Below, in pieces: positions 2,126-27,509 of a stretch of 29,912 nt of DNA. Each line of letters begins with the position of its first letter. The first letter of the stretch is position 1. A model generated the notes under the pieces. The model was not told the origin of the DNA. It saw only the letters and a program-made list of their open reading frames with translations, and ran no database searches. The stretch covers positions 1,620,834 to 1,650,745 of the forward strand of contig KV454011.1 of assembly GCA_001661245.1 (NCBI GenBank). The letters run 5' to 3'. The position numbers and the translations under genes are program-made. The DNA comes from Pachysolen tannophilus NRRL Y-2460 (taxonomy: Eukaryota).

Positions 2126-3640
2126 CTAACCCCAAATAATACTTTTATCAACACCTCCACTAACAAAATAATTTCTAAAGCCACTTGCTAGCTTTCTCAT
2201 GTATTCTTCTTCTGGTTCCAATTCATTAGTTTTCTTCTCTGCATTACCATTTTGTTTAACATCAACCGTATCAATTATAGGACAAGAGAATTCCATACAA
2301 TTCACAAATCCTTCATGACCAGTCAAGGTATTAATGCATCTAACTCCATTTTGGTTTGTCAAATCCCATAATTTGATTGTTTTGTCGTCACTACAACTAA
2401 AAAGTATTTTACCATTTGGATGAATTTTTAAATCTTTGACCCATGATGAATGGCCTCTCAATGTCAAAATCAATTTACCATTAGGATCTAAAGACTGCAT
2501 TGGATGCCTGTGAGGTCTTAAATTTGGAAGTGGTAAGAGCCATAATTTGATGAGATCATCTCTTCCACCAGAACAACAATACTTATATTCCAATTGATCA
2601 TATAATTCGTTTTTTAAAAAATGCTTTGATTCTTCTTCACTATCGTCAAACAAAAATTTTTTTGCTAAAACATCTAAATATTTGTTCGATATCTTGGGGA
2701 AAAACATACAAGTTTCTATAACTTGAGAATGTCCAATCATTAACCCTATCCCTGTACCTGATTCCAAGTGTGATAATCTAATACTTAAATCGTTGGAACA
2801 GCTCAATACATATTCACCTGTTGTAGTCAAATCCAATTTTCTAACCCAATCTGAATGACCAATAAAAGTATTTAAACACCAACCAGAAGATATATCCCAG
2901 ATTTTAATAGAAGTGTCTCTTGAACAACTAATAAGCTGTTTTTGATTAATAGGGTGAAATGCAACATACGATACAATATGATCATGTCCAGTGAGTGTTC
3001 TCAAAGCCTTGTAATCCAGATTCAGATCCCATATTTTGATCATGAGATCAGAAGAAGAAGAGGCCAAATATATACTTCCATACTTGTCTTCATTGTTAAG
3101 TACTACTTCTCTTGGTGAAAAATTTAACGATGTAATAGCTTTTGTATGAGCATTTTTAATAATTTTAATAGGCTCCGTTAAATTCAACATATCCCAGACA
3201 ATAATTACCCCATCCCCTGATGCGGTACATACAACTGGTTGAAAAGGGTGTATTGCAATTGCTGTTATAGGGGAATTATAAAATTTCAAATTTTTATTTA
3301 TGTGAGATGGTAACCAATTTAACTTGTCTTTTGATAATAAAATTGAATTTGGCAGACTCGAGGACAGTAATAAACTATCCTTATATTGTTGTACATCATT
3401 CTCCAACTCCATGATTTGTTTTTGTAATCTCAAAACTGCCGACCATTTTTTCTCTAGATAGTGCTTGGGTATACCATCTTCATATCCTTCACGATTTACC
3501 GATAACGACTTAAATAATTGATTTATGATTAATTGTTTTTGGTCCTCTGTTATTTCTGTAGACTGTGTTATCAAAGGAGCTAGGTATTGAATCACCGACT
3601 TATTTAGTTCTGCTGTTTGCCTATCAGAAAGCGCTGACAT
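2126..3640 (-). CDS. PAC1: LIS1/NudF-family dynein regulator (LisH, coiled coil, WD40 repeats)
   Basis: 504 aa. LisH-like RQTAELNKSVIQYL, conserved LEKKWSAVLRLQKQIMELE coiled coil, NWLP motif, multiple GH...WD repeats (TLTGHDHIVS, GHSDWVR, SCSDDKTIKLWD). Confidence 0.93.
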   Translation of the reverse strand: MSALSDRQTAELNKSVIQYLAPLITQSTEITEDQKQLIINQLFKSLSVNREGYEDGIPKHYLEKKWSAVLRLQKQIMELENDVQQYKDSLLLSSSLPNSILLSKDKLNWLPSHINKNLKFYNSPITAIAIHPFQPVVCTASGDGVIIVWDMLNLTEPIKIIKNAHTKAITSLNFSPREVVLNNEDKYGSIYLASSSSDLMIKIWDLNLDYKALRTLTGHDHIVSYVAFHPINQKQLISCSRDTSIKIWDISSGWCLNTFIGHSDWVRKLDLTTTGEYVLSCSNDLSIRLSHLESGTGIGLMIGHSQVIETCMFFPKISNKYLDVLAKKFLFDDSEEESKHFLKNELYDQLEYKYCCSGGRDDLIKLWLLPLPNLRPHRHPMQSLDPNGKLILTLRGHSSWVKDLKIHPNGKILFSCSDDKTIKLWDLTNQNGVRCINTLTGHEGFVNCMEFSCPIIDTVDVKQNGNAEKKTNELEPEEEYMRKLASGFRNYFVSGGVDKSIIWG

Positions 3641-4422: not shown

Positions 4423-6648
4423 TCATATCTCCAAATGATTCTCATCACTTTCAACAATAGTGTGTTTGTGTCCAGAGTCTAACTTAACCTGACCATTTTC
4501 AACAGTGCAGTACTTAATTTCATTGAACCACTCATCCTCAAAGATTTCTTTCATTGTAAATCTTTTTTCAGGATTTACTTCCAACATTTTAGAGATTAAT
4601 GGTCTTGAAGCATGTGGTAATAATCTTAATAACCTATAAGGACCATGAATTTGCCTATGTCCAGAAACAGATTTTGTATTGTGTTGTTCTTTTGAATTTT
4701 TGTCATCACCATGTTGCTGCTGATGCTGTTCTGGATTCTGCGGCTGTTCTTCCATAGATGCTTGGGTCTTCTTATTGGTATCACTATCTGTTCCATCGCA
4801 ATCTAATTCATTTTCATCTTTTTTCTCTTGATTAACATCATCATGGTCAGTTTCATTATCATGATGTGAATCATGTTCAAGAACATTTTCCTTTTCCTTC
4901 AAATCACATTGGCTTCCATTATTGGACATTTGTTCTGATTTATTGATGCAATCAGTTTCATTTTGTTTATTTGCATCAACTGTGGTGGAATGATCATTGT
5001 TAATATTATTATTAGTATTAGTATTATTTTCATTATTTTGATTATTATTATTATTATTTTCATTATTAATCGATAAATCTTTTAGTTTGTCGTTTAAAGT
5101 GCGTTCTTCGGGTATCAGAGGTGCAGTTGGTACAAAAGATTCCTCATTTAAATTTCCATTCTCAATAATTTGAGGATGCTGCTGATGTGACTGTTGTTCA
5201 AAAGAAGAATCAAGGTTAGGAGTAACAGGTCTTGATCCTTGATTCAGGAGTTGTTGTTGATGTTGTTGAAGTTGCTGTTGTTGACGTTCAATTAATTTTT
5301 GTCTTCTATTTGCCAACAAAATCTTATGATTTTCAGCACTCTTTACATAATCATGTGGTTGATCATCTTCCATGCAATATAATTTAAAACTTGGATCTGA
5401 TAATTTTGGTGCCCTCCATGGGAACCTTCTTATTGTGATACAACAATACATAATAGCAATAGACCAAATATCCACTAGTTGAGGATCATAAGAATCCGTA
5501 CTAGTTAATACTTCTGGTGCCAAGTAGGGATCGGAACCAACAATTCCATGGGCCATAACAACCTTATCTTCAAATGGGTACTTGAACACTACTGCAGAAC
5601 CAAAATCAATAATTTTAATTATTCCATCTCTTGTAGCAACACAGTTTTCTAATTTTAAATCTCTATGAGCTAATCCCGTACTATGTAAATAATTTACACC
5701 AAGAGTTATTTGTTTTAAAGAACAATTAATTTCTGATCTTGACATTTTACCTGACATGACAACTGCAAAGAAATCTACTGGTGCATATTCCATAATTTCA
5801 AAATAATGATTATTTTCACAAATTATATCCAATGTTTGAATAATGTTTGGATGATGTAAAGTTGAACCAATACAAAATTCAGCAGTACATTTTTTACTAT
5901 AATCTCTTATATTTTCATTTGGTTTTTTAGATCTAAATTCTTTTACAGCAAATATAAAACCATCAGCTTCTCTTACTAATAACCTGACAGAACCACCAGC
6001 TCCGGTACCTAAAATTTTACCCAACTTTCCATATTTTTTGGTTAATGAACCTTCCATATCATCTTGAAATCTAGGATCTGTATTGACAATCATATTATTA
6101 TTACTGTCATGAGTAAAACTTGGTGAATAAACTGGATGACCTGGTGTTGTTGTTGTTGTTGCTGTTGTTGTTGAATTCTTGGAATTATCTGAAGAAATTA
6201 AAGATAAACTTGATTTCCTTCCAGGTCTAAAAAATCTTTTCAATTCAACCATGGATCCATATTCTTTTCTCTTTATATGCTGCTCATTTTCTCTCTTGGA
6301 ATTGAGATTAGCATGATGCTCACCATGCGGGCTTGTAGATCCAGAACCTTGATGATGAAGTCCAGATTGATAATGATGATGGTCATCATGTTCCAAAGAA
6401 TTTATTGAAAGATTTGAAGATGATTTACCAATAGAAATTCCTAAAAATGACCTTCTGGAGTTATTTGAATGCTGAGTAAAATAATTGTTTGGAGAATTTT
6501 GACCACCACCACTAGCGCTCTTATCCCCATTGGTTCCACCAGTCGAAGCCGACGGTGACATTAATGGAGACTTCGCACCAGATGAGCTATTTTCTTTATG
6601 ATGATGATGATGTTTATCATGGAATGATATACCTAGTCTATTCGGCAT
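4423..6648 (-). CDS. HRK1: NPR/HAL5-family Ser/Thr protein kinase, Hrk1 type (741 aa from the first ATG)
   Basis: ELKRFF motif, [66 protein letters not shown] long N/Q-rich insert precedes [16 protein letters not shown], as in Hrk1. The ORF-track start at 6660 is TTG; first ATG is at 6648. Confidence 0.88.
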
Positions 6649-8357: not shown

Positions 8358-8972
8358 ATGGATAGTTCAACAGCTACTTTCATATCGATATTGGTTGTTG
8401 CATTTATAGTGCTAAAATGGTTTATGGCTCCAAGTTCTACATCAAACTCACCGAATCAAAGGCTGTCAACAAGTTCTAATACTCGTGGCCAATCTTCTTC
8501 AACAAGTCGAAATCAAATACAAAATCAACAATTTCAAAATAGAGAGCAAGGCCAACAATCAAGACTGCATCGTCAAGTTACTCAAGATATGATAGAAGTT
8601 GTACAATCTTTGGCCCCACAATTAAGCATTCCGCAAATTAGATACGATTTAGAAAGATCTGGATCTGTTGAAGCTACAGTTGAAAGATATTTAACAGAAG
8701 GAGGATTACCTTCTCCACCAAACTTGGAGAATGATGTTGATGGAAATATAGCTGATAAAACTGCCAAATCTGGATTATTTAAAAATTCTTCAAATTCTTC
8801 AAAATCAACTTCTTCTTCTATTGCTGATACTACTGCTGAGAAAAAAAAGATTGGTGGATGGGCTCAGACTAAAGAAGAAAGAGCCGCTAATGTACAAAGG
8901 AAAAGAGAAGAAATGATTTTAAAAGCAAGACAAAGATTGAAATCACAATTGTCTAATGAAAAAAATTTCTAA
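8358..8972 (+). CDS. CUE1: Cue1/Cue4-like ER membrane-anchored CUE-domain protein (ERAD Ubc7 cofactor)
   Basis: 204 aa. N-terminal hydrophobic anchor (FISILVVAFIVLKWF), CUE domain VTQDMIEVVQSLAPQLSIPQIRYDLERSGSVEATVERYL, C-terminal U7BR-like RKREEMILKARQRL. Adjacent to SAP30 as in S. cerevisiae. Confidence 0.85.
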   Translation: MDSSTATFISILVVAFIVLKWFMAPSSTSNSPNQRLSTSSNTRGQSSSTSRNQIQNQQFQNREQGQQSRLHRQVTQDMIEVVQSLAPQLSIPQIRYDLERSGSVEATVERYLTEGGLPSPPNLENDVDGNIADKTAKSGLFKNSSNSSKSTSSSIADTTAEKKKIGGWAQTKEERAANVQRKREEMILKARQRLKSQLSNEKNF

Positions 8973-10861: not shown

Positions 10862-11174
10862 NNNNNNNNNNNNNNNNNNNNNNNNNNNNNNNNNNNNNNN
10901 NNNNNNNNNNNNNNNNNNNNNNNNNNNNNNNNNNNNNNNNNNNNNNNNNNNNNNNNNNNNNNNNNNNNNNNNNNNNNNNNNNNNNNNNNNNNNNNNNNNN
11001 NNNNNNNNNNNNNNNNNNNNNNNNNNNNNNNNNNNNNNNNNNNNNNNNNNNNNNNNNNNNNNNNNNNNNNNNNNNNNNNNNNNNNNNNNNNNNNNNNNNN
11101 NNNNNNNNNNNNNNNNNNNNNNNNNNNNNNNNNNNNNNNNNNNNNNNNNNNNNNNNNNNNNNNNNNNNNNNNNN
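10862..11174. other. Assembly gap (313 N) flanked by two error-laden copies of the same ~75-bp sequence
   Basis: 10790-10861 (gtttacaaaa...cacaaaaaaatgtaagaaaacaagaaaacagaaaac) and 11175-11250 (gttttccaaaa...cccaaaaaaatgttagaaaacccagaaaaccgaaaac) are homopolymer-slipped versions of each other. Confidence 0.9.
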
Positions 11175-11244
11175 GTTTTCCAAAAAAAAAAAACCCAAAA
11201 AAATGTTAGAAAACCCAGAAAACCGAAAACCAAATTCCCATTAT

Positions 11245-12483: not shown

Positions 12484-12491
12484 TATATAAA
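12484..12491 (+). promoter_or_regulatory. Candidate TATA box (TATATAAA) of the WOPR-family gene
   Basis: Matches TATAWAWR about 140 bp upstream of ATG 12631, which has an A-rich context (ataaaatATG). Confidence 0.45.
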
Positions 12492-12630
12492 ATAACCTAT
12501 TTAACCGCTTGATTATAAAGTATCTCTATCTCTATCTTTATCTATATGGTTAAAAAATCTATTTGTATTTAAGAAAATAATATTTTTTTTTTGTTTCTTC
12601 TTTCTCCACTTGAATAATAATTCATAAAAT

Positions 12631-12930
12631 ATGGAATCATATCACGGATTAATTTTAACACCTAGAGATGCTATTGTCTTATTAGAAGCAGCAAGAGTTG
12701 GACTAATTCCAAAGATAACGAGAAGATTAAGTGAATTTGAACGTCAAAAAGTTATTAGAAATGGCTCAGTTTTCATCTGGGATGAATCTGAGAGTGGAAT
12801 GAAAAGATGGACTGATGGTAAATCATGGAGTGCAAGTAGAGTTAGTGGTAGTTTTTTAATTTATAAAGAAATGGAAAATACTAAAAATTTTTCATTTTTT
12901 GAAAATAATCCAAAAAAACCTACATATTAA
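12631..12930 (+). CDS. Gti1/Pac2 (WOPR) family transcription factor, Pac2/Pth2 subtype: N-terminal WOPRa half only (99 aa)
   Basis: MESYHG...DAIVLLEAARVGLIPKITRRLSEFER..IRNGSVFIWDESESGMKRWTDGKSWSASRVSGSFLIYKEME is the WOPRa signature (RWTDGxxWSxSR). The ORF stops about 16 codons after the domain, in what is normally the linker. Confidence 0.9.
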   Translation: MESYHGLILTPRDAIVLLEAARVGLIPKITRRLSEFERQKVIRNGSVFIWDESESGMKRWTDGKSWSASRVSGSFLIYKEMENTKNFSFFENNPKKPTY

Positions 12931-12973
12931 TGATATATGAGCAGCAGCAACTAACGAAAGCTTTTAGAATAAA

Positions 12974-13004
<31 letters not shown>

Positions 13005-14063
13005 GTAATAATACAAAAAAAAAAAATAATAATAATAATAATAATTAATTTTTCTTTTACTAGTTGAAAGTTCTATCTAAGGCAGTCAAAAATTGACCAT
13101 CCTCCCTATAAGAAGAACTTTCAATACTATGACGATGCAGATGCATTAAACCAGCCATTGGAATATTAGGATCCGTACCATCTACGGTTAAACTATTATT
13201 ATATTTGATTTGTTCCAATGGGGGTAATCTTAAATGATACTGATTTTCATTAATTGAATTATTTTGAATCTTATTATCAACTTGTAAATATGCCTGATAT
13301 TTAGGGGGTGTTGTATAATCTCCTCCTGAAATATACAGAATTTGTTGTTGTTTATCATTAGGTATATTTGAAGGTATTGTTACCAATGGAGGAAGCCTTG
13401 GAGATACATTTTCAGTATTAATACTTGTAAAAGAATCATAACTGTTTGTAGTATTAGCACTGGAAAAAGCAGCAGATGTGTTTTGATTGTTGGTGTTGAC
13501 TGTTGGTGAATAACTATTAGGCAGACGACTGCCCCCTTGTATTTCTGTAGCATCATCTGAAGGAGACCTGGAGACAATAGTAGTAGCATTTATAGAATTT
13601 ATAGCATTTGTGGGTTGGAGTCTCAGCTGCAGTTGCAGTTGCACTTGAGCTTGCAGTTGTACTTGAGCTTGCAGTTGCAGCTGGAGTTGTTGTTGTCGCA
13701 TAATTGTGTCCAGAGAAAGATCAGTAAATATATCTTGGTAAGCTAGAATATGCTCTGGATACAATTCTTTATTATATAAAATATTTGCAAATAATGGATT
13801 CAGGCTTGGCCTAATCAATTTTTCAATATGAGCCAGACCCAGTCTTGAACTTGAAGAATGTCCATGAGAAGAATTCAAATGTGAATCTCTTAAATAAGAA
13901 TCATTAACATAACTAATCAAATGTAATTTCAGTTTATTTTTCAAATTTAAAGAAAAACTTTGTTTAATTAATCCATTACTTTTATATCTATAAGTGTCAT
14001 GATTAGAGCCGTTAATACAATCCAATTTTTTTTTCGGCAAACCTTTTGAATTTTTTGATGTAG
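12920..14063. repeat. 6-bp inverted microhomology CTACAT (12920-12925) / ATGTAG (14058-14063) bounding the apparently inverted segment
   Basis: Left, + strand: AAA CCT ACA TAT TAA. Right, - strand: AAC TCT ACA TCA AAA. The shared CTACAT is in the same codon phase in both half-ORFs. Confidence 0.55.
12974..13045. repeat. (AAT)n microsatellite and poly-A between the two convergent WOPR half-ORFs
   Basis: Two runs of aat repeats separated by an A-tract; this would be the 3' UTR of the minus-strand half. Confidence 0.85.
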
Positions 14064-14088
14064 AGTTTATTACATAGATAGATAGATC
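13060..14088 (-). CDS. Gti1/Pac2 (WOPR) family transcription factor: linker, WOPRb and C-terminal half on the opposite strand, lacking an ATG start
   Basis: Frame is open from 14088 (after TAG 14091-14089) to the stop at 13060. Contains WOPRb YRYKSNGLIKQSFSL...KLHLISY (13992-13909), RPSxxP, a Q-rich tract, LPPL motifs and a Pac2-type C-terminal ED...L..LDR.F motif. First in-frame ATG (13701) is downstream of WOPRb; the ORF-track start at 14040 is TTG. Confidence 0.85.
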   Translation of the reverse strand, partial: DLSIYVINSTSKNSKGLPKKKLDCINGSNHDTYRYKSNGLIKQSFSLNLKNKLKLHLISYVNDSYLRDSHLNSSHGHSSSSRLGLAHIEKLIRPSLNPLFANILYNKELYPEHILAYQDIFTDLSLDTIMRQQQLQLQLQAQVQLQAQVQLQLQLRLQPTNAINSINATTIVSRSPSDDATEIQGGSRLPNSYSPTVNTNNQNTSAAFSSANTTNSYDSFTSINTENVSPRLPPLVTIPSNIPNDKQQQILYISGGDYTTPPKYQAYLQVDNKIQNNSINENQYHLRLPPLEQIKYNNSLTVDGTDPNIPMAGLMHLHRHSIESSSYREDGQFLTALDRTFN

Positions 14089-15535
14089 CTAATACCTACG
14101 GGAGGGATCTAAATTTAAAAATAATTTCCAAAGGATGATTTAATATGAAGCTGATGTTTCAAATTTTAATAAAACAAATAATAAAAAAGAAAGAAAAAAA
14201 AACAGTATTTGAAAAGAAAAAGGGGCAAAAAAATCATTAATTAATTACCAAAACTACAAACAATGATCGCCACCCAGTTGATTACAGAGCAATAAAAAAA
14301 AAGACTAGTTTTTCATTATCAGCGTAAACATTAAAGAAATCATTTGATACTTTAAAAATGAAATTGTTTGCTTAGAAATTAAGGTTTTTTTTTTCTTTTC
14401 TTCTCCAAAACAGATAACAAGATTTACAAATACATCAGTTGGAACTAAGTAAAACAACTAGTGTGTGTGTGCAATTAAACAAAATTACAACGTTCAGTAA
14501 AGAAGTAACTAACATTCTACTAATATTTATCTTCGTTGCCTTTCTTTTTTTTTTTTTATGGTCCATGTAGTCCGATGCTTGTCTTTTTTCCTGGCCTAAC
14601 TAGAGCATAATTTTGAATTGCCCTGAAATCTAGAATTTAGTTAACAAAAAGATTAAATAGACAATTAAATAGATAAAACAGATACAATTAAACACATTTA
14701 CAATAGAACCTTTCTGACGACATAATAAAATGGTCATTTGGTTTAAGCAAGTTGGGTAAAACATAAATATATAAATATATTAATATATATATATTAATTA
14801 TAAAAAGAAAAAAAAAAATCCATCATCCTTCACATTTGAAACCGCATATGCAATGAACTTAATTGCATATATATTACATTAATTTAGCTCTTTTTGGACT
14901 TTTTTTTTTATTTTTATTTTTTTTTTATTTGTTAAACTCCAACCAAGAACTAGGTAGATATGAACTCCGAACTTTAAAATAAAAAAAAAAAAAAAAAAAA
15001 TTACGTGAATTGGTTGGTGGACGGGAAAAGAGAAATAAGTTATTGCTATGCAGACAGTTGCTATTTGATGTTTAGCGCTGCATTAGAAAGTCAATTAGAG
15101 ATCGATCAATTGACTAATTAAACAAACTATAAAGAGAGAAAAACTCATATAACTCGTAAAACTTGATCGGAAAAATAACAATTACAAAATACTTTTCTCC
15201 TACCCAATCATTGTGATAATACCAGAAAAGGATGATCATCTACTTTTAATCATTTCAAAAGGCGGTAGCATTTTGGTTGAAGCAATTTGGATTTTGCTCT
15301 TTGTTATCTGGGATATATGACTTTCTTTATTCTTCCTTTGTTCTTCCTCCGTGTTAATTTTGCAATCACAAATGGTAGTGCAAGAAAGTACAATATAAAA
15401 TTGTATTGAAGAAATTAAAAGGAAAGAAGAAAAAAAAAATTATAGTATGGAGCTAGTAATAATAATACTTATAAAATATTGAACAACAAAAAAAAGGGAA
15501 GAAAAAGTATCTTGGTGTTGGTTCTCTTATAGATC

Positions 15536-16771
15536 ATGTCGAATGTAAAGCACTTCCCACTTATATCTCGGTCGAAAAATACTGCTTTGAAGCAGCCAAA
15601 GGAAATTTCAAGCTTTTCAAGAAATATTGAAGGTGAATATCTTCAAGATGATTCGAGTTTAAGTTACTATTATTTACCAGATTCGGATGTTGGACAAGAT
15701 CAGATTGATTTATCTGCAGGATTTAAAGATTTTATTCAGTTTGATCCTGAAAGAGATGGTGAGTTTACTGGATTGTTAAAATGTATTGAAAATTATGAAA
15801 GAAGTATGGATTCTAAGTTAAAAGTTGATATTATCTCATGGAGAGGTATAATGACAAAATTATTAATTTTACCCTATGAAAATAGAAATGAAATAGATCT
15901 TAATATTATTAGATTTGATGGTCAAATTTTTATACAATCAGATAAAAAACTTGATTTAAAAAGACAAGAAGAAGAAAAGCTGTCCCAAACCGATCAATTG
16001 AAAAAACTTACATTTAGTGGTTATAAATTTGAAGTTGCAAGTACTTTAAGTCAACCATGGCTGCAGTCTACAAGAAAAGAGATTGAAACTAGAAGGAAAA
16101 GAAAAGTGAATAATATTGAACAATATTGTTCTGTTGTAAAGACAGGAATAGGGAAAGTTAAATATTGTATTGGAGGAGAAGTTGATTGTGTATGGGATTA
16201 TAAACCTTCTAAAGAAGAAGAATTGGAAACGAATGATGATCCATTGACTCATTACGTTGAATTGAAAACCTCGAGAATCTTGGATCAACCAGGGCAAGTT
16301 TTTAATTTCGAAAAAAAATTGTTTAAGACTTGGGCACAATGTTTTTTAATTGGTATAAGGAAAGTAATATACGGATTTAGAGATGATAATTTAATATTGA
16401 GGAGCGTTGAAGAATATAAGACTGATGAAATTCCATTATTGTTTAAACAAAATCCATTAAATCAACAGCAACAGCAACAGCAGCATCAGAAGAATCCAGC
16501 TAAAAAGGCAAAACATTTAAACAAATGTATGGATTCCCTAAAGTTTTTTGGATCCTTATTGGAATTTATTGTTGATAATATACCAGATGATGAAACTAAA
16601 CTGTGGAGATTAAGTTATCATCCAAATTCGAATAAAGATTACTTGCATTTAACTCAGTTGGATGTATTAGAAGCTAACGAATTGTTAAATGGTGAAAATA
16701 GTATTTTGACTTCTGATTTTAAAAATTGGAGAAAAGAATTAAAAGAAAAAATAAATTCCACTTCAAATTGA
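15536..16771 (+). CDS. RAI1: Rai1/DXO-family decapping nuclease, partner of Rat1
   Basis: 411 aa. LKQPKEISSFSR, DIISWRGIMTKLL, GYKFE, QYCSVVKTGIG, GEVDC, YVELKTS, KLFKTWAQCFLIGI..VIYGFRD. Catalytic E/EVD/ELK/Q motifs are intact. Confidence 0.95.
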   Translation: MSNVKHFPLISRSKNTALKQPKEISSFSRNIEGEYLQDDSSLSYYYLPDSDVGQDQIDLSAGFKDFIQFDPERDGEFTGLLKCIENYERSMDSKLKVDIISWRGIMTKLLILPYENRNEIDLNIIRFDGQIFIQSDKKLDLKRQEEEKLSQTDQLKKLTFSGYKFEVASTLSQPWLQSTRKEIETRRKRKVNNIEQYCSVVKTGIGKVKYCIGGEVDCVWDYKPSKEEELETNDDPLTHYVELKTSRILDQPGQVFNFEKKLFKTWAQCFLIGIRKVIYGFRDDNLILRSVEEYKTDEIPLLFKQNPLNQQQQQQQHQKNPAKKAKHLNKCMDSLKFFGSLLEFIVDNIPDDETKLWRLSYHPNSNKDYLHLTQLDVLEANELLNGENSILTSDFKNWRKELKEKINSTSN

Positions 16772-16924: not shown

Positions 16925-17627
16925 TCAAAAATTGAATCTCCTTTGAGTACTCTCTCCGTGTTCATTCCCGATAGCAGAACTATTACCATATGGTGTGCGA
17001 TATTCACTGGTTAGCAACAATTTTTTCTTTTGAAAAGGCGTTTCCCTGGGTTGTGTAGGCAGGGAAATGGGTTGATCGCCATTATCAACGTCAGACTTCT
17101 GCTGTTGTTGTTGTTGTTGTTGCTGATGCTGATGCTGTATCTGTTCAAGATAGCTCCCCTTATAAGTACCAAAAGCGACATTGTTAACATATAACGATCC
17201 TACAGTAATCAACAAAACGAAAAAAATAGCCTTCCATGAAATTGGTTTAACAAATCCATTAATTATTTCAGCAAACGTTTCTGCACCAATTCTAGCTTTC
17301 CCCAACTGAGCGGGATCTCTTTGCATACATTTTTCCCACGTCAAGCATGATTTCTCCAACGCTGGCACTCTTGTTGGGGGAGCACAATTGTTTTGATTAT
17401 ATTCTCTGGAGCAGGAATTTATCTGCTGTAGAACTGCAGCTGAGTAGATTTCTATCTTATTATCAATATCTGTTCTTATAGTGGAAACAAATAAGTAAAT
17501 TAAGTAAAGTATGAATGATACCACTATTATGTTGATTATTAGTTGAAAATAAAGAGCGATGCAGTATGGAATTGAAGGATCACTTATTAATCTATGGAAC
17601 GTGAATTTGTTACTGCTATTACTATTA

Positions 17628-17662
<35 letters not shown>

Positions 17663-18604
17663 GTTATCATTATTACCATAATTATTATTTTCTTTTTCGT
17701 TATATTCATTTAGGTCAACATTTTGCTTTTTAGCGTCATTCTCTTGGGAAAGAACCAATCCATTCAGATCATTCTCATCCAGCGAGCCTTCAATAATATC
17801 TGAGTATTTAGTAGAGTTTTCATTAAAGACACTATTCTTCATCAAAGGACTAGATTGATAAGGTAAACTTCCTCTTCTGTAAATTAATTTTGGTGGTAAA
17901 TAACTTCTATCAAATGGCAAAGAAGAATTAAAGAACGATAAGCCATTGTTGTTATTGCTGTTTATATTAGAATTTGTCTTATCAATGAGCATATATGCTT
18001 CTTTAACAGGATTAGTTTTGCCAGGACCAACTGATTGTGATAAGTTATGCATGATACCTTGAGTCAAAGGATTGGTAGTTGAGCTGTTGATATGAATGTT
18101 GATGTTATTGGTACTATTGTCGATCATCGATTTGTAAGGTGAGCCAGTAGCATTATTGTGACTCAAATTTGAACTTGGCCGCACAATTTTTTTATCTTTA
18201 TCTTTAGATCTTTGTGTAGATTCAGCAAGAATTATTCCTCTTGATGATGCCTTCTTTTCACCACTTTTGCCTTTACCATTCAAAACAATACTATCATTTT
18301 CCGTAGCATTAAGCCAGCTTCCAGGAATCGTCACATTTGAAGTATCATCATCATCATCATCATCATCAGCATCGCTATGAGCTATTATTCCATCTTTACC
18401 AAAATTGATGGGTGTGATAGTTTTTCCCGTTTCAGCTTTCTTCAAAATTCTTGAATATTGAGTCCTCAATAATGGAGTTTTAGGATCTTTTTCAATATCT
18501 TGGAGCGTGATGGGCGACAACGAATTTCCTGAAAAACTCGAATCGATAATTGATGGTGTACCAAAATCACCATTCTGTGGATGAATAGGAGTACTTGTTG
18601 TCAT
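16925..18604 (-). CDS. Brl1/Brr6-family nuclear envelope membrane protein (nuclear pore biogenesis)
   Basis: 559 aa. Long low-complexity N-terminus, then PYxIxxYFQLxxN transmembrane helix, luminal loop with four Cys (SCSREYNQNNC...RVPALEKSC..WEKCM..DP), AETFAEIINGFVKPISWK and a second transmembrane helix. Length resembles Brl1; position next to RAI1 resembles BRR6. Confidence 0.92.
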
Positions 18605-18836: not shown

Positions 18837-21800
18837 CTAACTCATATTCAGCTTCTCGTCCTTACCAACGTTATACTTTGGTGAGTTCTTCTTTGTGTTT
18901 CTACCAAAGACCAAAGATCTATCTTTATTTTTGTTTGTGTGTGACGATGGCATGCTGCTGGAGTTGTTGATTGTCGAAGATGAAGAAGGAGGTGTCATTG
19001 AAGGAATACTATTTGATGCAGGAGATGCAGCTGAGTCATGGTTTACGATTGGTGAACTATTGACGCTAAACCTATTGGGTTTCTTCTTTGTCTTATTAGA
19101 GCTTCTCAATAAACCATCCAAGCGGAATGAACTTTCCTGTTGTGGGTAAACTTGCTGGTGAGGGGCTAGTTGTGATTGTTGTGGTTTGCTTGTGTCATAC
19201 TGCTGTGGTTGTTGTAATTGATACTGTGATTGAGATTGATCTGCTTGTGAAAATTGAGAATCAATATCTTTTGAATTAGATGATATTATCTGAGGAGCTA
19301 ATCTTGGGGATTGATCACTCAAGGGAGTTAAATCAGTAACAGATTTTAAATTTTGATTATAAGAATGATGTTCTAAACCTAACCTTCTTGTAGAATTTCT
19401 GTTACTTTTAAACGAGATATATGAACTTCTTTGAGGTAACGTATTACCATTATTATCTCTGTTAAAATAATGCTCTGAAAGTGCCGTTGGACTACTTCCA
19501 AAAGAATCAGCCAATGAAGTCTTGAAAGAAGTAGATGAAGGGGTACGAGCCAAACTTCTATTCAATATAGCAGAAACTTTTTTATCATAAACTTGAGGAG
19601 CTGATTCAAACGGAACAATTGCATCACTATTGCTATAAGATGTATCCGTTGATCTTCTATATTGATGTAATGAAGAATTTCCATACCCAGAAGCAACAGA
19701 GTCATTAATCTCTCTTGTAAAGAAGGAATCCAAGTTATCCAAAGCCGCATATATATTACTCAAAGCAGAACTATCATTTTCCAGTACATGTGATTCAATA
19801 ACAGAAATTGTGTCACCAAATTCGGGTAATATTTGCAGTTGCAGTTGCAGCTGGTATTGATGGTAATGTTGCTGTTGTATGTGATGTTGATGACTTTGTA
19901 TTTGTTTTTCATAAGTATATTCTTCTGCATGAAATTCAACATTATCTTGCTGCTCGGTTTCAGCGTTACTTGCAACTACACATGTAGAGAAGACAGCATG
20001 GATGTTGTTTCTAGTAGTAGCCGCAGTTACTGCAGGCATTGGAATAGCCCAACCACTTTCTTCTGGTATACCAAATAAAGTTGCCGTTTTTTCATATCCT
20101 TTTCTAATTGTTTTATTACCAAGACTCATTCTTAAAACATCTTTATCTAATTGCGAACCTGATATACTAACAGTTTTATCAAGAACCGTCAAAGCTTTTT
20201 CTGCGTAATCAGTGAGAAGCAAACGTAACAATGGTGAAATTAAATCGGCACCTACTCCAATAAACTCTTCTTTTTGTAAGTCAATCAAAGGAAATATTTT
20301 TTCTAACAACTCCATCGTTTCTATTTTTACCCAATCAATTTTATTTGATAAAATTCCTAGTAAAAAAACCACCGTTTGTGCTTGATAATTATTAAAGAAA
20401 TACTTCTTGATGGTATTAACAATTTGACTTAAAAAATCCTGCTTGGTTCTAAATTTTTTCTTTATAAATGAAGATAAAATACGGGACAAATCCGACCTAT
20501 CATTCTCTGGGTGATTAGACAGAATTGCATTCAGATTAAATCTTTCCACCATTCCACAAATAGCGGTTGCTGCATCGATAATGTCAACGGGGAATTCATT
20601 GATAGCTAAAGCGTGTAAAAACCTAGGGAGATTTGATAAAGTAGCTAATAATAACCTAGAGTCTCCCGATCCTATGATATCACTATCATGTAATTTGTTT
20701 AAACGATCTAGTAATGCCAAACATGGCTCCCAAGCATTTGAAGATCTTAAACCAATCATAACAATTTGCTGTAAACCATCAAATTTACCCTCCCATTTAG
20801 GAGGAAAAGTCGAGATCAAACATGAAACAGTATCAGGAGAATCTAAATCAATTTTCGAAACAAATTTAGATAAAGCAGATAAGACTTCGATAAATTCTTG
20901 TTCATGAACAGTACTTAAGCAAGAAACACTCGACCAAAACAACTGAGGAAAATCAATTAATTTTTCCGAACTCAATTCAGCCGTTATGGCATTCAAAGTC
21001 ATTAAAATTTGCATCGCAAAGCCTTGGATATCTGGGGTCTCATCCGAAATAGTATTTGATAGACGGTGTAACATATCTCTTAACATACCTTGATCTAAAA
21101 ACGATAACAATGACCTGAAAATCTGAAAAGAACGACAAGCAATATGCCTTACAGCACAAGTTGTTGCCCATGTTAAAGAGACTCTACTCCAATCTTCTTG
21201 CAAGTTTGGAACGGAATTTCTGAATATTTCCAACATATTACGGGTTAGTACATCCATGTTTCTCGGAGTTCTGGTTCCATTCCTATCACTATTCAAATCA
21301 TCATAAACCCATAAACTTTTGGAATAATCGCGCTTTCTCAACAACGAAATTGTATCAGCCGCCTTTGGCTCATCTAGAGCCAACCCATGAATCAAGTGAA
21401 TTAACATCTCACATGCTTGATCCTGAACAATAAATAAATAATGATCCAACAAAGAAAAGGAAACATGTAATAACAAGGCCAACTTTGTCCTCATAACCTC
21501 TGATGACGCAATGAAAAGATCAACTAAAAAGATCATTGATATTTGACCTAAAGAGAATACTGATTCTTTTCCTGTATCACTCAAATATTTCCATAAATCT
21601 GCAATATATGGCAACTCATCCGATGTTGGTTGAAATTCTGATGTATCTGGTTGTGGCGGAACCATTGCCTTCGGTTCTAAATTGGAGATAAGATCATCAA
21701 TTAATGAACTGCCTGCTGGGGCTAATGATAGATAGACAATAACTTGACGTGAATATTCCACAAAAGATGATAACCTTCTTTTGAGACAATCCGAATTAAT

Positions 21801-24800
21801 AAAATACATAATGGGCTTAATATTATTCATGTTGTTACCATTTGCTAAGGCAACCCAAAGAGCTTCGACCTCATTTTGCATTCTATCACTGAATTTGATT
21901 GAAATTTCAAATAAATTGTTCAAAACCATTAAAGTGTTGACATCTTCTTTATTTTCGTCATCCAATTGTAATTTAACACTATTAAACCAAGGTAACAAAA
22001 TTGCCAATAAATCTCGTCTGAATTCAACGCTGACCACATGGAACCATTTCGTTAATTCGGATATTATCTTAAAAGATTCTTCAGGTTGAGTGGATGCAAA
22101 ATGAGAAGACATATTGAAAATTGCTCTTTTATAAATAACTTTAGTCCTACTACAAACACTTTCGGTGAATCGGTCAACAAAATTACTATTATATGCCTTC
22201 TTTTCAGTATGTTTCAATAATTTAGCTGCTGCAACTCTCATTTTAAAATTATCAGAGCCCGCTGCACATAACGCTAGAGAAACAATCTGATAGGATTTTG
22301 CGGGCAATTCATCTAATTTCAATACTGCATCAGCAAAAGTTAAAAAGTAACTTTCAGCAGTTTTCGGATTTTCATGATATGTATAGCAGCATTCAAAAAT
22401 ATTTGAATATATCTCTTTGTTATCCGTATTTAATGATAAAATATTAAATAACGCTTTTCTACCAAATGAATGAAGTTTCAGGTTTTTTGTATTAAATAGA
22501 GCACTGATCCAATGCAATAGACCCGGAATATCAAATGACATAAGAACAGACTTTCCTGATTCTTCTATTTGCTTCATTATTGGACTTGAACATAAGGCCG
22601 CCATACAGCTAACTGATGAATACTCTAATGCAGATCTCTCTAGCTCAAGCGACGCATTCAAAGAAATAGAATCCTTCGAACTAGATATGTTCTTTATCAT
22701 GTAGTTATATCTTTCTTGGGCTACTGCAGCAGACAGTCCATAACCACACCATTCTTCTAAAAACGAAAAGCAACTAGCTCTTGCTTCAAATGGTAACCAT
22801 ACATCTGCATCAAAATTTTGCGAAATCCCTAAGTACACATTTTCCAAAATACCACTGAAATAACGACGTAATCTTTGAAATACAAAATCTGTTTGAATTG
22901 AAGGTATGGATAAAAACATTTTTAAACTTTTGATAATCGCCACCAACTTTCCCAATATCCACTCATCTGCATAAATACGATTATCCAAAAATCTAGCGGT
23001 AATATTATTCAATATTCTTGCTAGTTCAATTTTCAACCTATCTTCACTAAGATCTCTTTGGTTATGCTTCGGGTGATCGTCATTTAGTGATGGATCAATA
23101 CTTTCTAAGAAACTTTTGAAAATATTAACATTGACACAACTAAGTCCAGCAACGATCGCATCTCTCACTGTTGGTTGTTGGGTTTTTAACAAAGGTACAA
23201 CCATTTTAAAAATCGATTTTGCACTGGTGATTTTTTGATGCTGAACTGTTAATACTTGTTGAGACCTTTTTCTGATATGAGACTTAGTGAAACTTGATGA
23301 GTTGGAAGTGCCAGAGATTGAGCCCGAAGGTATATGTAGTCTTTGCTCATTTGTAGATGTTAATGTAGTACATGCTACAATCAAATATATTCTCCATTGT
23401 TCCACTAATAATTCTGGTGGAGAAAATTGTTTTGATGCTGAATTTGTAGCTCCCATCAGTTCTTCAACAGCAGTCTGATTATTGGTAGAACTATTACTAT
23501 TATAAACACCAGACAAAGCTCCAAAAAATGATGAAGCTGATTTATTTGGTTGATGATGGCTATGATTCTTTCCAACGTAATTCAGAGAAAAAGACAAACT
23601 CCTCGAAGTTGACTCCTCTGAAAAGCTGAAGATGGGTTCATGAATTTGAACTAACCTGACGCACACAATAGAGCGACATAAGGCTATTGGAATCGGGCAT
23701 TTCTCAAAAATTATTGTCAAAACTTTAGGAAATATTTTAAACCATAATGTGCTATCGATCCCATAGTCACTTCTGGCTAATGAAGTTAATATATTTTTCC
23801 TTTTTTTAATATTTAATTCCTTTAGCCTTTTTTTCTCAGGTAAAGTCAATTCTTTTTCCAACGGGGAAATTAGTTCAAAGAAGTCTGTATTGCTTAAAAT
23901 GTGAATTAATCTAGTACCGACTTCAGCAGTAAATTTGGAAGGAGTCCTTTTATGTTGATTTTGGTCTTTAACAAAATCTTCTTTTGTATTTTCAGTATTT
24001 GAACTTATAATAGTTAACTCGTCAATAACTTCATCGAAGGTTGATACGATTTTCAAAATTTGTAAACCAAAATGGCGAGTTCTAGAATCTTGCGAACATA
24101 AGAAAAATAAACCGTTCCCTTCTACTTCTTCAATAATAGTAATAATGTTTTTCAATTCAAGCTCATCGCTAATCTTATTGGATTCTACTTTCACTAGATT
24201 ATCACCGCTATTAATAACTCCGTGAACTGGATTATTTATGTTCCCATTTATATTCATATTATTGATATTATTTGGATTCATACCATTAATTGAGACTTCG
24301 ACCGCTTCCGGCTGAGAGTTCTTTAAAATTTCTTTGAAAGAATTTAGCCAGCAGTTCAACAAATCGACATATATTTTGAGCAAACTCTGATACTCTTTAG
24401 AAGTCAAATAATTTACATCAAAAGCACAGTAAGACTTTTCATCAAACTGAAAAGCATATCTTGCAAAAGTAATAATCAAAATTTTTGGATTCTTCTTTAT
24501 GAGCAAAACCTTTAACGTATTGATCGCAGCTGAACTTATTCTTACGTCACCATGTACAGAGTTCCTAACTAATAGTTCAACTAATTTCCTGTATGAGATA
24601 TTTAAACCAGAAGATGAGCCATATGGAATAGTGTCAATCAACGTAGAGAACAACTCAATATTCAAATTTTTCGTAATATGAGAAGAAAAATCATTGTTAT
24701 GCAAGAACGAGGAAAAGGGCGACTTTGCCGAAAATGTCGAAGACAGAGTTGAAGCACCAGAAGTCAACGATGATATAGACATACCAGAACCAGGTGAGGA

Positions 24801-27509
24801 TGAAGTGTTTGAAACAGAACCATTATCTGGCAGGGAAGAACTAGAATTCAATTGCCAGTTAGGAGCCCCAATAGAGCTATCCAAAGTTTGGAAGAGTTTA
24901 AGAAATATTTTCGTGAGTTCTTCGTGAGTTGAAGCATTGGATGAATTTTTTTCAAAAATATCAGTCCCTCCATTACTGAATAAAACAGAACCATTTTTTT
25001 TCCTGCTGTCAATATTTATAAACTCAAAAGCATTTCTCTGTTGCGGAATATCTATCAAAACTTCGTCGGTAGGAAATGGTGGCCTCTTCTTCGTTTCGAC
25101 ATCTATCAAAATAGCAATGTATGATCTTAAACATAAAATCAATTTTTCTTGAGAAATTCCCTCTAAGCCAGAACCATTATAACTTGACTTGATTAATGGT
25201 AACAAAACATTTTCTAAAGTATAGTTTAAATTCGAATATCCGACGGATCTCAACAACTGAACGGAAGCTTGAATCAATGATAAATCAGACGTTATCCATT
25301 GCTGTTTCTTTGAGGAATTATTGAAAAATAAAAGTTTAAAAATTCTATCCAAATTCCTAACGGTATTATTTAATGATTCAGTACATCTGAATAAATACGT
25401 CCAGGTTAGTCTTGCACAGCATGTGATATATATTATCTTGTCCTCTACTGAGGCCTTCGGAACCTTGGGCTTCAAAATATTAACATTACTTTCAATAATT
25501 TTCAACCAATTGTCTAAAAATAAGTCGCTATTAGAAACGGACAAACTAGTTGTTACCAAGTTAATTCCAGAGGCCCAGAATTGTCCAGATTTATAGCTCA
25601 ACATCCATAACGCTTTCTGAGAAATTAAATCGATTGCTTCACTCCAGGTAGGATGATTCACCTCTGCAGTGACAATACCAGCCAATGGCAATAAAATCTG
25701 ATTTAAAACTTCCGCGTATGATAATAACACATTTTCGTTTTGACATTTGCTAAAAAATTTTCCCACGCTCTGCAAAAAATCTGAACTTTCTTCAAAATTT
25801 TCCAAGGGGTAATGTCTTAATTTTAAATATCTCATTCCATGAATCAATAATCTTAAATTGTCTTCTGTATGGCTGTTATTGTTATTATTAGTGCTATTAT
25901 TATATTCAATTCCATTATAAACATCAGCAGATAAATTTCCTTGATCACTTTTGCTTATTGAAGAAGATGAATTATTTGAAATATTTGGTGGAACTTTTTC
26001 CAAATCAGCTATGAATCTATCACTAACACTTAAAAATCTCTTATCAGACATATAACCTAATAATTCTGCAAATAAATTCCAGTTTGAAGATCTTATCAAA
26101 CTTTTACTTATCAATATTGGATCTGTAGTTTTCAATTGTGAATGAATAATTTCCTCCAATTTATCCCCTAAATCGTCTCCTAAGACATCATTTGGTGTTT
26201 GTTTGACAACCTCGATTAATACTCGACATAATATATAAATACTTATTAAAGATTTTCTTTCTGCTTGAATTGCAGTTTCTTTAGATTCTTCGACTTTAAT
26301 TGCTAAGCTTTTAAGATTATTGTTATTAATATCAGACAAGTTGGTACCATTATCAGATGAGCTTATCGAATTTGATTTACGATCTTTCACTGGAGAATTG
26401 GATGTAGATGATGATGAAGTAACTGGACCTAATTTGGATGAACTTTTCTTGTGTGATCTCATGAATGATAAAGAAGCCTGGCGATGTAGGCCCTTGTGTT
26501 CTTTAAGTGGTGGTTCAGGATTTGAAATTGTTCTTGAAGTAGAAGGAATTAATCTTCTCTGTTCTTGTTTCAATATTTTGATATTTTTTTCAACTGCACT
26601 AGACGCTAATATGGCAACTTCTGATTTTGATTTTCTCCAAAACATTACAGAGTCAATTACAGGCTTTGGTTTTCTTCTTGCAATATATCCCAATGATTCT
26701 ATTATTTTATCAAATGCTGGGTCAACACCTTCTGCTAACAATTCATTTATCGGAGGTTCCGTATCTAATGAATAAGTATTTAAGCATAAATTTAATTTCC
26801 TTTCAGCATGTCTAACAAATTGTGTAAATAATATATGTAATGTATACTCAGCTGGAGTTTTCTGATCAGTTGCCAAGTTTCTGCGTACTTCATTAATCTC
26901 ATTAATATTAATCATAGTCAATCTTCTATCCAAACCTGTCTTTTGTTGTTGTTGCTGCTGCTGCTGCTGTTGTTGCTGTTGTTGTTGTTGCTGTGGAGCC
27001 TGTTGAGCTTTCTGGGTCTGCTGAGATACTTGCTGCAATAAGTCCTGAGAATTTTGTACTTTCTCAGGAGTGACAAGTGGGGGTGGAGGTGGTAGTTGAG
27101 GTGTAATTAAATTATTCAGAAATTGTGAAGTAGGTTCAGCATTGGGAGTCGTTACCATTTCATTAGTATTTTGATTTTGATTTAAATTCAAGTTTTGGCT
27201 TAATGAATGCATAGGAGGATCTCCCAATTTAAAATCAGAAGTTTGAGAGTAATATTGATCGTGGTCTTGTTGAACTATTTGAGGTGAAACTTGATGTTCA
27301 TGTTGTTGTAAACGCAGATGAAGATTATTTTCGAATGTATTGGAATCAAAGGATGAATTTGCGTTATAATCCTCGGGTATATCTGGAATTTCTATTATTT
27401 GAGGAATGTGATTTTCTTGAGATATGTTATATATTGATTGCTGATTATTATGATCATTATTACTGCCATTTGCACCGTTGCCTCTTTCGCCATCAATATT
27501 CACCGACAT
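18837..27509 (-). CDS. TAO3: Tao3/Pag1/Mor2/Furry RAM-network scaffold protein (2890 aa)
   Basis: TPAEYTLHILFTQFVRHAERKLN, EGVDPAFDKIIESLGYIA...KPKPVIDSVMFWRKSKSE, AERKSLISIYILCRVLIEV, EEVEGNGLFFLCSQD, WATTCAVRHIACRSFQIFRSL, KTATLFGIPEESGWAIPMP. Confidence 0.95.
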   Translation of the reverse strand: MSVNIDGERGNGANGSNNDHNNQQSIYNISQENHIPQIIEIPDIPEDYNANSSFDSNTFENNLHLRLQQHEHQVSPQIVQQDHDQYYSQTSDFKLGDPPMHSLSQNLNLNQNQNTNEMVTTPNAEPTSQFLNNLITPQLPPPPPLVTPEKVQNSQDLLQQVSQQTQKAQQAPQQQQQQQQQQQQQQQQQKTGLDRRLTMININEINEVRRNLATDQKTPAEYTLHILFTQFVRHAERKLNLCLNTYSLDTEPPINELLAEGVDPAFDKIIESLGYIARRKPKPVIDSVMFWRKSKSEVAILASSAVEKNIKILKQEQRRLIPSTSRTISNPEPPLKEHKGLHRQASLSFMRSHKKSSSKLGPVTSSSSTSNSPVKDRKSNSISSSDNGTNLSDINNNNLKSLAIKVEESKETAIQAERKSLISIYILCRVLIEVVKQTPNDVLGDDLGDKLEEIIHSQLKTTDPILISKSLIRSSNWNLFAELLGYMSDKRFLSVSDRFIADLEKVPPNISNNSSSSISKSDQGNLSADVYNGIEYNNSTNNNNNSHTEDNLRLLIHGMRYLKLRHYPLENFEESSDFLQSVGKFFSKCQNENVLLSYAEVLNQILLPLAGIVTAEVNHPTWSEAIDLISQKALWMLSYKSGQFWASGINLVTTSLSVSNSDLFLDNWLKIIESNVNILKPKVPKASVEDKIIYITCCARLTWTYLFRCTESLNNTVRNLDRIFKLLFFNNSSKKQQWITSDLSLIQASVQLLRSVGYSNLNYTLENVLLPLIKSSYNGSGLEGISQEKLILCLRSYIAILIDVETKKRPPFPTDEVLIDIPQQRNAFEFINIDSRKKNGSVLFSNGGTDIFEKNSSNASTHEELTKIFLKLFQTLDSSIGAPNWQLNSSSSLPDNGSVSNTSSSPGSGMSISSLTSGASTLSSTFSAKSPFSSFLHNNDFSSHITKNLNIELFSTLIDTIPYGSSSGLNISYRKLVELLVRNSVHGDVRISSAAINTLKVLLIKKNPKILIITFARYAFQFDEKSYCAFDVNYLTSKEYQSLLKIYVDLLNCWLNSFKEILKNSQPEAVEVSINGMNPNNINNMNINGNINNPVHGVINSGDNLVKVESNKISDELELKNIITIIEEVEGNGLFFLCSQDSRTRHFGLQILKIVSTFDEVIDELTIISSNTENTKEDFVKDQNQHKRTPSKFTAEVGTRLIHILSNTDFFELISPLEKELTLPEKKRLKELNIKKRKNILTSLARSDYGIDSTLWFKIFPKVLTIIFEKCPIPIALCRSIVCVRLVQIHEPIFSFSEESTSRSLSFSLNYVGKNHSHHQPNKSASSFFGALSGVYNSNSSTNNQTAVEELMGATNSASKQFSPPELLVEQWRIYLIVACTTLTSTNEQRLHIPSGSISGTSNSSSFTKSHIRKRSQQVLTVQHQKITSAKSIFKMVVPLLKTQQPTVRDAIVAGLSCVNVNIFKSFLESIDPSLNDDHPKHNQRDLSEDRLKIELARILNNITARFLDNRIYADEWILGKLVAIIKSLKMFLSIPSIQTDFVFQRLRRYFSGILENVYLGISQNFDADVWLPFEARASCFSFLEEWCGYGLSAAVAQERYNYMIKNISSSKDSISLNASLELERSALEYSSVSCMAALCSSPIMKQIEESGKSVLMSFDIPGLLHWISALFNTKNLKLHSFGRKALFNILSLNTDNKEIYSNIFECCYTYHENPKTAESYFLTFADAVLKLDELPAKSYQIVSLALCAAGSDNFKMRVAAAKLLKHTEKKAYNSNFVDRFTESVCSRTKVIYKRAIFNMSSHFASTQPEESFKIISELTKWFHVVSVEFRRDLLAILLPWFNSVKLQLDDENKEDVNTLMVLNNLFEISIKFSDRMQNEVEALWVALANGNNMNNIKPIMYFINSDCLKRRLSSFVEYSRQVIVYLSLAPAGSSLIDDLISNLEPKAMVPPQPDTSEFQPTSDELPYIADLWKYLSDTGKESVFSLGQISMIFLVDLFIASSEVMRTKLALLLHVSFSLLDHYLFIVQDQACEMLIHLIHGLALDEPKAADTISLLRKRDYSKSLWVYDDLNSDRNGTRTPRNMDVLTRNMLEIFRNSVPNLQEDWSRVSLTWATTCAVRHIACRSFQIFRSLLSFLDQGMLRDMLHRLSNTISDETPDIQGFAMQILMTLNAITAELSSEKLIDFPQLFWSSVSCLSTVHEQEFIEVLSALSKFVSKIDLDSPDTVSCLISTFPPKWEGKFDGLQQIVMIGLRSSNAWEPCLALLDRLNKLHDSDIIGSGDSRLLLATLSNLPRFLHALAINEFPVDIIDAATAICGMVERFNLNAILSNHPENDRSDLSRILSSFIKKKFRTKQDFLSQIVNTIKKYFFNNYQAQTVVFLLGILSNKIDWVKIETMELLEKIFPLIDLQKEEFIGVGADLISPLLRLLLTDYAEKALTVLDKTVSISGSQLDKDVLRMSLGNKTIRKGYEKTATLFGIPEESGWAIPMPAVTAATTRNNIHAVFSTCVVASNAETEQQDNVEFHAEEYTYEKQIQSHQHHIQQQHYHQYQLQLQLQILPEFGDTISVIESHVLENDSSALSNIYAALDNLDSFFTREINDSVASGYGNSSLHQYRRSTDTSYSNSDAIVPFESAPQVYDKKVSAILNRSLARTPSSTSFKTSLADSFGSSPTALSEHYFNRDNNGNTLPQRSSYISFKSNRNSTRRLGLEHHSYNQNLKSVTDLTPLSDQSPRLAPQIISSNSKDIDSQFSQADQSQSQYQLQQPQQYDTSKPQQSQLAPHQQVYPQQESSFRLDGLLRSSNKTKKKPNRFSVNSSPIVNHDSAASPASNSIPSMTPPSSSSTINNSSSMPSSHTNKNKDRSLVFGRNTKKNSPKYNVGKDEKLNMS
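26942..26994 (-). repeat. CAA/CAG polyglutamine tract in the TAO3 N-terminus
   Basis: Run of tgt/tgc triplets on the + strand encoding about 17 consecutive Gln. Confidence 0.85.

Follow-up and report, generated by a model that had tools for sequence, protein, structure and literature searches.

How does a WOPR transcription-factor gene come to lie as two convergent halves on opposite strands, and does the arrangement record a lesion, an error of assembly or a genetic switch? The question is raised by a locus in the window (the whole 29.9-kb stretch of DNA analysed here) in which the WOPRa region is encoded on the plus strand (12631-12930), while the WOPRb region and the C-terminal tail lie on the minus strand (13060-14088). 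No description of this Pachysolen WOPR locus was found in the published literature searched. Most probably the locus is a null allele confined to this strain or else a local error of the assembly, and its reading as a switch is not supported. The arguments that lead to this view, and those that favour one or the other of its two branches, are set out below.

Two open halves of one WOPR gene

The plus-strand half is an ORF of 99 codons that begins at ATG 12631, ends ...ENNPKKPTY and is closed by a TAA at 12928-12930. It matches positions 1-87 of the 168 positions of Pfam PF09729, Gti1_Pac2 (E 5.4e-36, 124.7 bits), as well as two WOPR domains of known structure, those of Wor1 (4qtj, E 3e-17) and YHR177W (4m8b, E 1e-14). 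The WOPRa region, about 80 amino acids long in this family, is thus present, and with it the KRWTDG motif, here in the form GMKRWTDGKSW. KRWTDG is a family hallmark of WOPRa and has been named as a putative PKA site (PMC13729134). A homologue search that covered proteins of at least 175 amino acids returned 1317 matches; among the best 120 of these, which were examined, the highest identity is 75%, to a Candida boidinii protein (P0002). A candidate TATA-like element, TATATAAAA, can be read from the plus strand at 12484-12492, 139 nt 5' of the ATG. The motif TTAAAGTTT, which we take to be the Wor1-type site, has 2 matches against 2.43 expected, so that there is no sign of the clustering of such sites that would point to autoregulation.

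The sequence 3' of the WOPRa stop has some features of its own. A branch-point-like ACTAAC is followed by an acceptor-like TTTTAG at 12949-12967 (+), and directly after TTTTAG comes a 26-codon open frame of AAT and AAA (Asn/Lys) codons ending in TAA, the whole stretch occupying 12949-13048 (+). A plus-strand intron that would use these two elements was considered and rejected, since no GT donor is found between about 12852 and 13004. The pair is read as a chance occurrence (an estimated frequency of about 9%).

The minus-strand half is open from 14088 to 13063 (342 codons), with its stop codon at 13062-13060. This openness is not accidental: the longest open run in 2000 shuffles is 158 codons. 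The frame contains a linker remnant, the WOPRb region at 13906-14040 (residues 17-61) and a tail of 280 residues, which includes a (QA)n tract, an S/N-rich part and a C-terminal EDGQFLTALDRTFN motif. WOPRb, of about 50 amino acids in the family, is recognised by a YRYKxxGLIKQSFS...KLHLISY block that aligns with relatives. Its match to positions 124-167 of Pfam Gti1_Pac2 scores 25.4 bits, barely above the cut-off of 23.6, and is backed by alignment to three single-chain relatives. With the K. phaffii protein P0003 this half has 49% identity over 91 residues (9-99 of the 326-residue query), and a PDB sequence search with the minus half gave no match at E up to 1.

Translation of the minus half appears to be compromised at its start. 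The first in-frame ATG is found at 13701, 3' of WOPRb, and rescue by an intron is not apparent either: the 1.45 kb upstream, with 6 donor-like sites and 2 acceptors, yields no solution combining an ATG exon and an intron. Near-cognate start codons do precede WOPRb in frame, for example TTG at 14040. Directly upstream of the open frame there is an ATG-TAA mini-ORF, at about 14073-14068 (-). A (GATA)3 microsatellite on the plus strand, within 14068-14090, also adjoins the frame. The first-pass annotation had read this anatomy correctly in all its elements, namely WOPRa on the plus strand with an ATG and a TATA candidate; the linker, WOPRb and tail on the minus strand, with no ATG before WOPRb; two halves free of internal stops and frameshifts (99 and 342 codons); and stop codons 129 bp apart, the spacer being 12931-13059.

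The two halves tile single-chain orthologues without overlap, and the break falls in the variable linker. The alignment set consists of two C. boidinii-type proteins (437-438 aa), K. phaffii 'MIT1' (385 aa) and a Kuraishia capsulata protein (324 aa), which are the top full-length WOPRa matches among the 120 listed of 1317. Besides the YRYKxxGLIKQSFS...KLHLISY block, the tiled alignment takes in a C-terminal EDGxxLxALDRxF motif. Conversely, when the minus half was used as the HMMER query against 1.84 billion representatives, three proteins were detected at E <=0.001 (from C. boidinii, K. phaffii and Kuraishia). In all three the match starts at residue 87-108, and therefore WOPRa precedes WOPRb in the same chain. 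Judged from these alignments, the split is shared by no detectable relative, three of three being contiguous. The nearest relatives are named both MIT1 and pac2 in the sources, and the earlier label 'Pac2-type' is a tentative one, as the subgroup may be Wor1-like or Pth2/Pac2-like.

Of four features that define the family, three (WOPRa, KRWTDG and WOPRb) are thus found. The fourth, a single polypeptide with WOPRa, linker and WOPRb in this order, is missing as assembled, the two regions being on opposite strands, and a single chain is obtained after an in-silico flip. Inverting 12919-14025 creates one frame of 417 codons from ATG 12631, collinear with relatives of 324-438 aa, which reads ...ENNPKK up to the junction and LDCINGSNHDTYRYK... 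beyond it. This bears out the earlier proposal that one gene is regained when the middle segment is turned round. The precise ends leave some latitude: in a breakpoint scan 1545 of 4752 pairs give one stop-free frame, and the flip of 12919-14025 is the simplest of them.

Neighbouring genes and the genetic code

Nine ORFs of at least 150 amino acids are present in the window. They correspond to V-ATPase subunit a, a WD40 protein, a kinase, a CUE protein, a SAP30-like protein, Rai1, a Brr6-like protein, a Tao3/Pag1-type protein and aminopeptidase P. When the neighbour ORFs are translated with table 11, six out of seven are absent from the protein collection. With table 26 (CUG = Ala), four of these six become exact deposited proteins (ORFs 2129-3640, 4426-6648, 15536-16768 and 28269-29708, exact under this table only), whereas table 12 gives none of two. 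The annotation of this organism thus follows the CUG-Ala code, and table 26 is the one named for Pachysolen tannophilus. Three ORFs are not exact deposited proteins under table 26: the CUE ORF at 8358-8969 (+), the Brr6-like ORF at 16928-18604 (-) and the 2890-aa Tao3/Pag1-type ORF at 18840-27509 (-). Other start codons or introns were probably chosen in their deposited models.

The code matters for the WOPR gene too. There are 14 CTG codons in the minus half and none in the WOPRa half. Read as Ala, they convert the 'LQLQ' stretch of the tail, at 13620-13701 (-), into the regular (QA)n tract. One minus-half CTG, in ...TGAKLHL, aligns with the Ala of both C. boidinii-type relatives (P0001 and P0002).

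As to the products of the locus itself, no exact copy of the 99-aa, 213-aa (tables 11 and 26) or 326-aa form exists in the protein collection. A search with the minus half among proteins of 188-599 aa found nothing, the HMMER representatives include no protein nearly identical to it, and no protein of at least 175 aa exceeds 75% identity to the WOPRa half among the 120 matches listed of 1317. The neighbour proteins can be traced to one contig only, and therefore the collection contains no second assembly of the organism. A 40-nt stretch adjoining the left junction had no match in a metagenome scan.

Junctions and the origin of the split

The candidate inverted segment, 12919-14025, measures 1107 bp and would comprise WOPRb, the tail and some 140 nt that used to lie 3' of the gene. 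Its putative left breakpoint is a run of seven A residues (12912-12918, +) within the linker, a part between WOPRa and WOPRb that is not conserved; a flip at this run is in frame and stop-free. Its right counterpart is a run of nine T residues (14026-14034, +), the reverse complement of the left A run. The T9 run is favoured as the right breakpoint because the sequence at 14068-14090 looks like non-coding flank rather than former linker. An 84-nt (AAT)n low-complexity tract (12962-13045, +) lies 43 nt from the left junction and fills most of the 129-bp spacer between the stops. AAT/ATT trinucleotide tracts recur in the window, at about 4990-5076, 12962-13045 and 17606-17710, and some of them are coding, as poly-Asn.

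Flip/flop systems have flanking inverted repeats, and here A7 facing T9 is all that is seen. When the locus and the entire window were searched for repeats, low-complexity pairs were all that came up, the AAT/ATT tracts being the sole 'inverted repeats' reported. For the two zones of 301 nt around the junctions, the best local alignment in inverted sense has a score of 26, which was likewise reached in 85 of the 300 shuffles and in 78 of the window's 112 other intergenic pairs.

Neither junction contains an N. A 313-nt N run, which may be a scaffold gap or a masked stretch, occupies 10862-11174 and is separated from the ATG by 1.46 kb, and the contig that carries the WOPR locus starts at 11175. 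This N run sits in a 3-kb region of 21-23% GC upstream of the WOPR gene. In five sequencing runs (two studies), none of them on record as RNA, 0.89-0.90 of the sampled words of the stretch are present, a share that is blind to orientation: the loss expected from the two junctions is about 1% of the words, the same as from two base changes. A scaffold-level assembly of Pachysolen tannophilus, with a contig N50 in the 10^4 bin, appears in a table of PMC13232491.

The state of the two halves bears on the age of the event. Decay beyond the primary lesion, expected of an old pseudogene, is not seen; the conserved blocks survive, as does the C-terminal motif. In the minus half, about 4.9% of the possible point substitutions would make a stop, from which some 50 such hits can be estimated for each unit of neutral divergence, indels not counted. 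At such a rate an unselected half would rarely remain intact past one or two percent divergence. The undecayed state of both halves thus leaves three options: an event of very recent date, an event that did not take place, or selection that still acts on the halves.

We tentatively prefer, at somewhat less than an even chance, a real and recent inversion of about 1.1 kb that broke one single-chain WOPR gene. According to this model, an ancestral single-chain WOPR transcription-factor gene would have suffered a single, non-programmed inversion. One break would have occurred in the non-conserved linker at the A7 run and the other at the T9 run, about 140 nt beyond the stop codon, both points being approximate, and the ends would have been joined by a microhomology-mediated two-break event or by a template switch. 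A join of this type is consistent with A7 and T9 being reverse complements. The promoter would now drive a WOPRa stub of 99 residues only, with the WOPRb-plus-tail half oppositely oriented and devoid of a start codon. The lesion would be very young, arisen within the species or even acquired in culture, because neither half has decayed. In its favour, the halves tile one orthologue and are fused by a simple flip into the 417-codon frame, the 342 open codons of the minus half exceed every shuffle, the junctions are free of N and lie in otherwise unique sequence, and no inverted repeat reaches a length at which an assembler could mistake the orientation. The arrangement would then exist in cells, beyond the one assembly on which it rests. 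This dependence on one assembly is itself a weakness, as are the A-run and T-run ends, which look identical in either orientation, and the hard-to-assemble surroundings with their N run and (AAT)n tract. Small (about 1-kb) inversions that are free of repeats are rare in yeast genomes, which also counts against a real lesion.

Flawless halves are equally predicted by misassembly, and it is a serious possibility, to which we give a little less credence, that the gene is contiguous in cells and that the 1.1-kb piece was misoriented during contig joining or gap filling. In favour of such an artefact, the frame is exactly restored by a simple flip, the segment ends (A7/T9) are alike in both orientations, and the N run (1.46 kb upstream) and the (AAT)n tract (at a distance of 43 nt from the left junction) are close by. 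All three detectable relatives are contiguous, and neither half was found as a deposited protein, whether as exact products, as near-identical matches to the minus half or among the listed WOPRa matches of at least 175 aa. If the organism is P. tannophilus, the draft is a heavily scaffolded one, as tabulated in PMC13232491. Against this explanation, homopolymers of 7-9 nt are far below the overlap or k-mer of an assembler, and no longer inverted repeat is at hand. Moreover, the junctions hold no N, and junctions in unique sequence would normally be written only when reads contain them.

Two other readings take the inversion as real and the halves as useful, and both appear very improbable. The first-pass annotation, which proposed three readings (a switch, a recent inactivating inversion and a misassembly), chose in its title a candidate invertible on/off switch. 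The last two readings survive, whereas the switch lacks its defining anatomy. A programmed, reversible inversion that turns a WOPR master regulator on and off would fit the intact halves and the restoration of the gene by a flip. It would also suit the role of WOPR proteins in governing cell-state switches (PMC13729134) and the inversion of the MAT region that the CUG-Ala yeast P. tannophilus is reported to carry out on nitrogen depletion (PMC6692504). However, the inverted repeats are limited to 7-9 nt of A/T, as compared to the ~2-kb repeats of flip/flop systems. As the annotation had itself stated, the window offers no recombinase gene; a recombinase or transposase domain is found in none of its nine ORFs of at least 150 aa. 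Yeast homologous recombination is inefficient on 7-9 nt, which further weakens the case. That 12919-14025 might behave as a recurrent or polymorphic WOPR on/off switch by another path, through A/T-run microhomology or a recombination route free of long repeats, is just as hard to credit.

It is similarly doubtful, and to a like degree, that a real inversion has left a working two-chain WOPR protein, in which the stub and a separate WOPRb/tail protein would assemble non-covalently. WOPRa and WOPRb do interdigitate and are joined only by a variable linker (PMC13729134), both halves are intact down to the conserved C-terminal motif, and the TTG at 14040 and other in-frame near-cognate codons could start a product that includes WOPRb. 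This must be set against the lack of any ATG before WOPRb, the failure of the intron search and the mini-ORF just upstream (about 14073-14068, -). Youth explains the intactness of the halves more simply, and three of three relatives are unsplit.

Consequences and comparison with known systems

If the arrangement is real, the gene as assembled would be a null, because its promoter yields only the 99-residue stub and the WOPRb half has neither an ATG nor rescue by an intron; this loss of function is deduced from the sequence. The WOPR fold is an interdigitated sheet built from WOPRa and WOPRb, both of which are needed, and the linker between them is variable (PMC13729134). Since the fold requires the two regions to interdigitate, the WOPRa stub alone should not bind DNA. 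The sequenced CUG-Ala strain would hence be short of one WOPR regulator. In other fungi, WOPR proteins steer programmes of morphology, of metabolism or related to mating. The phenotypes that this reference strain shows might therefore be untypical of the species, and the rejoined allele would provide a clean tool for complementation. If, on the other hand, the arrangement is an artefact, the scaffold needs a local correction and an unannotated gene of 417 codons is to be added. With a true switch, genetic phase variation would govern a WOPR family known for epigenetic bistability, and this in a yeast whose mating-type locus is already subject to flipping. It would be the first case, mating-type loci apart, in which a eukaryotic master transcription factor undergoes phase variation by inversion. 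Wide interest attaches only to this unlikely reading.

In its parts, all of them undamaged, the locus is like Wor1 of Candida albicans, YHR177W/Rof1 and Mit1 of S. cerevisiae, C. boidinii P0002, K. phaffii P0003 and Kuraishia capsulata P0011. It has in common with these WOPR factors a KRWTDG-bearing WOPRa, a WOPRb, a variable linker, a low-complexity tail and the C-terminal EDGxxLxALDRxF. Unlike these single-chain factors, WOPRa and WOPRb are here convergent ORFs that make no single chain as assembled. Site-specific invertases, such as those of the bacterial Hin/Fim type or the FLP/FRT system of the yeast 2-micron plasmid, invert a small segment and so join or disjoin a gene and its promoter or 5' part. 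In contrast to these systems, no recombinase is encoded among the nine ORFs of the window and no common inverted core sites are present at the junctions.

The likeness to the flip/flop mating-type switching of Ogataea polymorpha, Komagataella phaffii and Pachysolen tannophilus, which belong to the same yeast clade, is that the orientation of a segment would decide the expression of a cell-fate regulator. The inverted region measures 8 kb in P. tannophilus and 138 kb in K. phaffii (PMC6692504), and 19 kb in O. polymorpha (PMC5720833); in P. tannophilus and Ascoidea rubescens, inverted repeats about 2 kb in length border it on either side (PMC6692504). Such systems shift intact genes beside a silencing region, whereas the segment considered here is 1.1 kb long and one of its breaks falls inside a coding sequence. 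The closest likeness is to ordinary strain-specific loss-of-function alleles or small assembly inversions: two breaks, microhomology, no decay and no machinery. The sole contrast with ordinary disruptive inversions is that the gene hit belongs to a family known for epigenetic switching.
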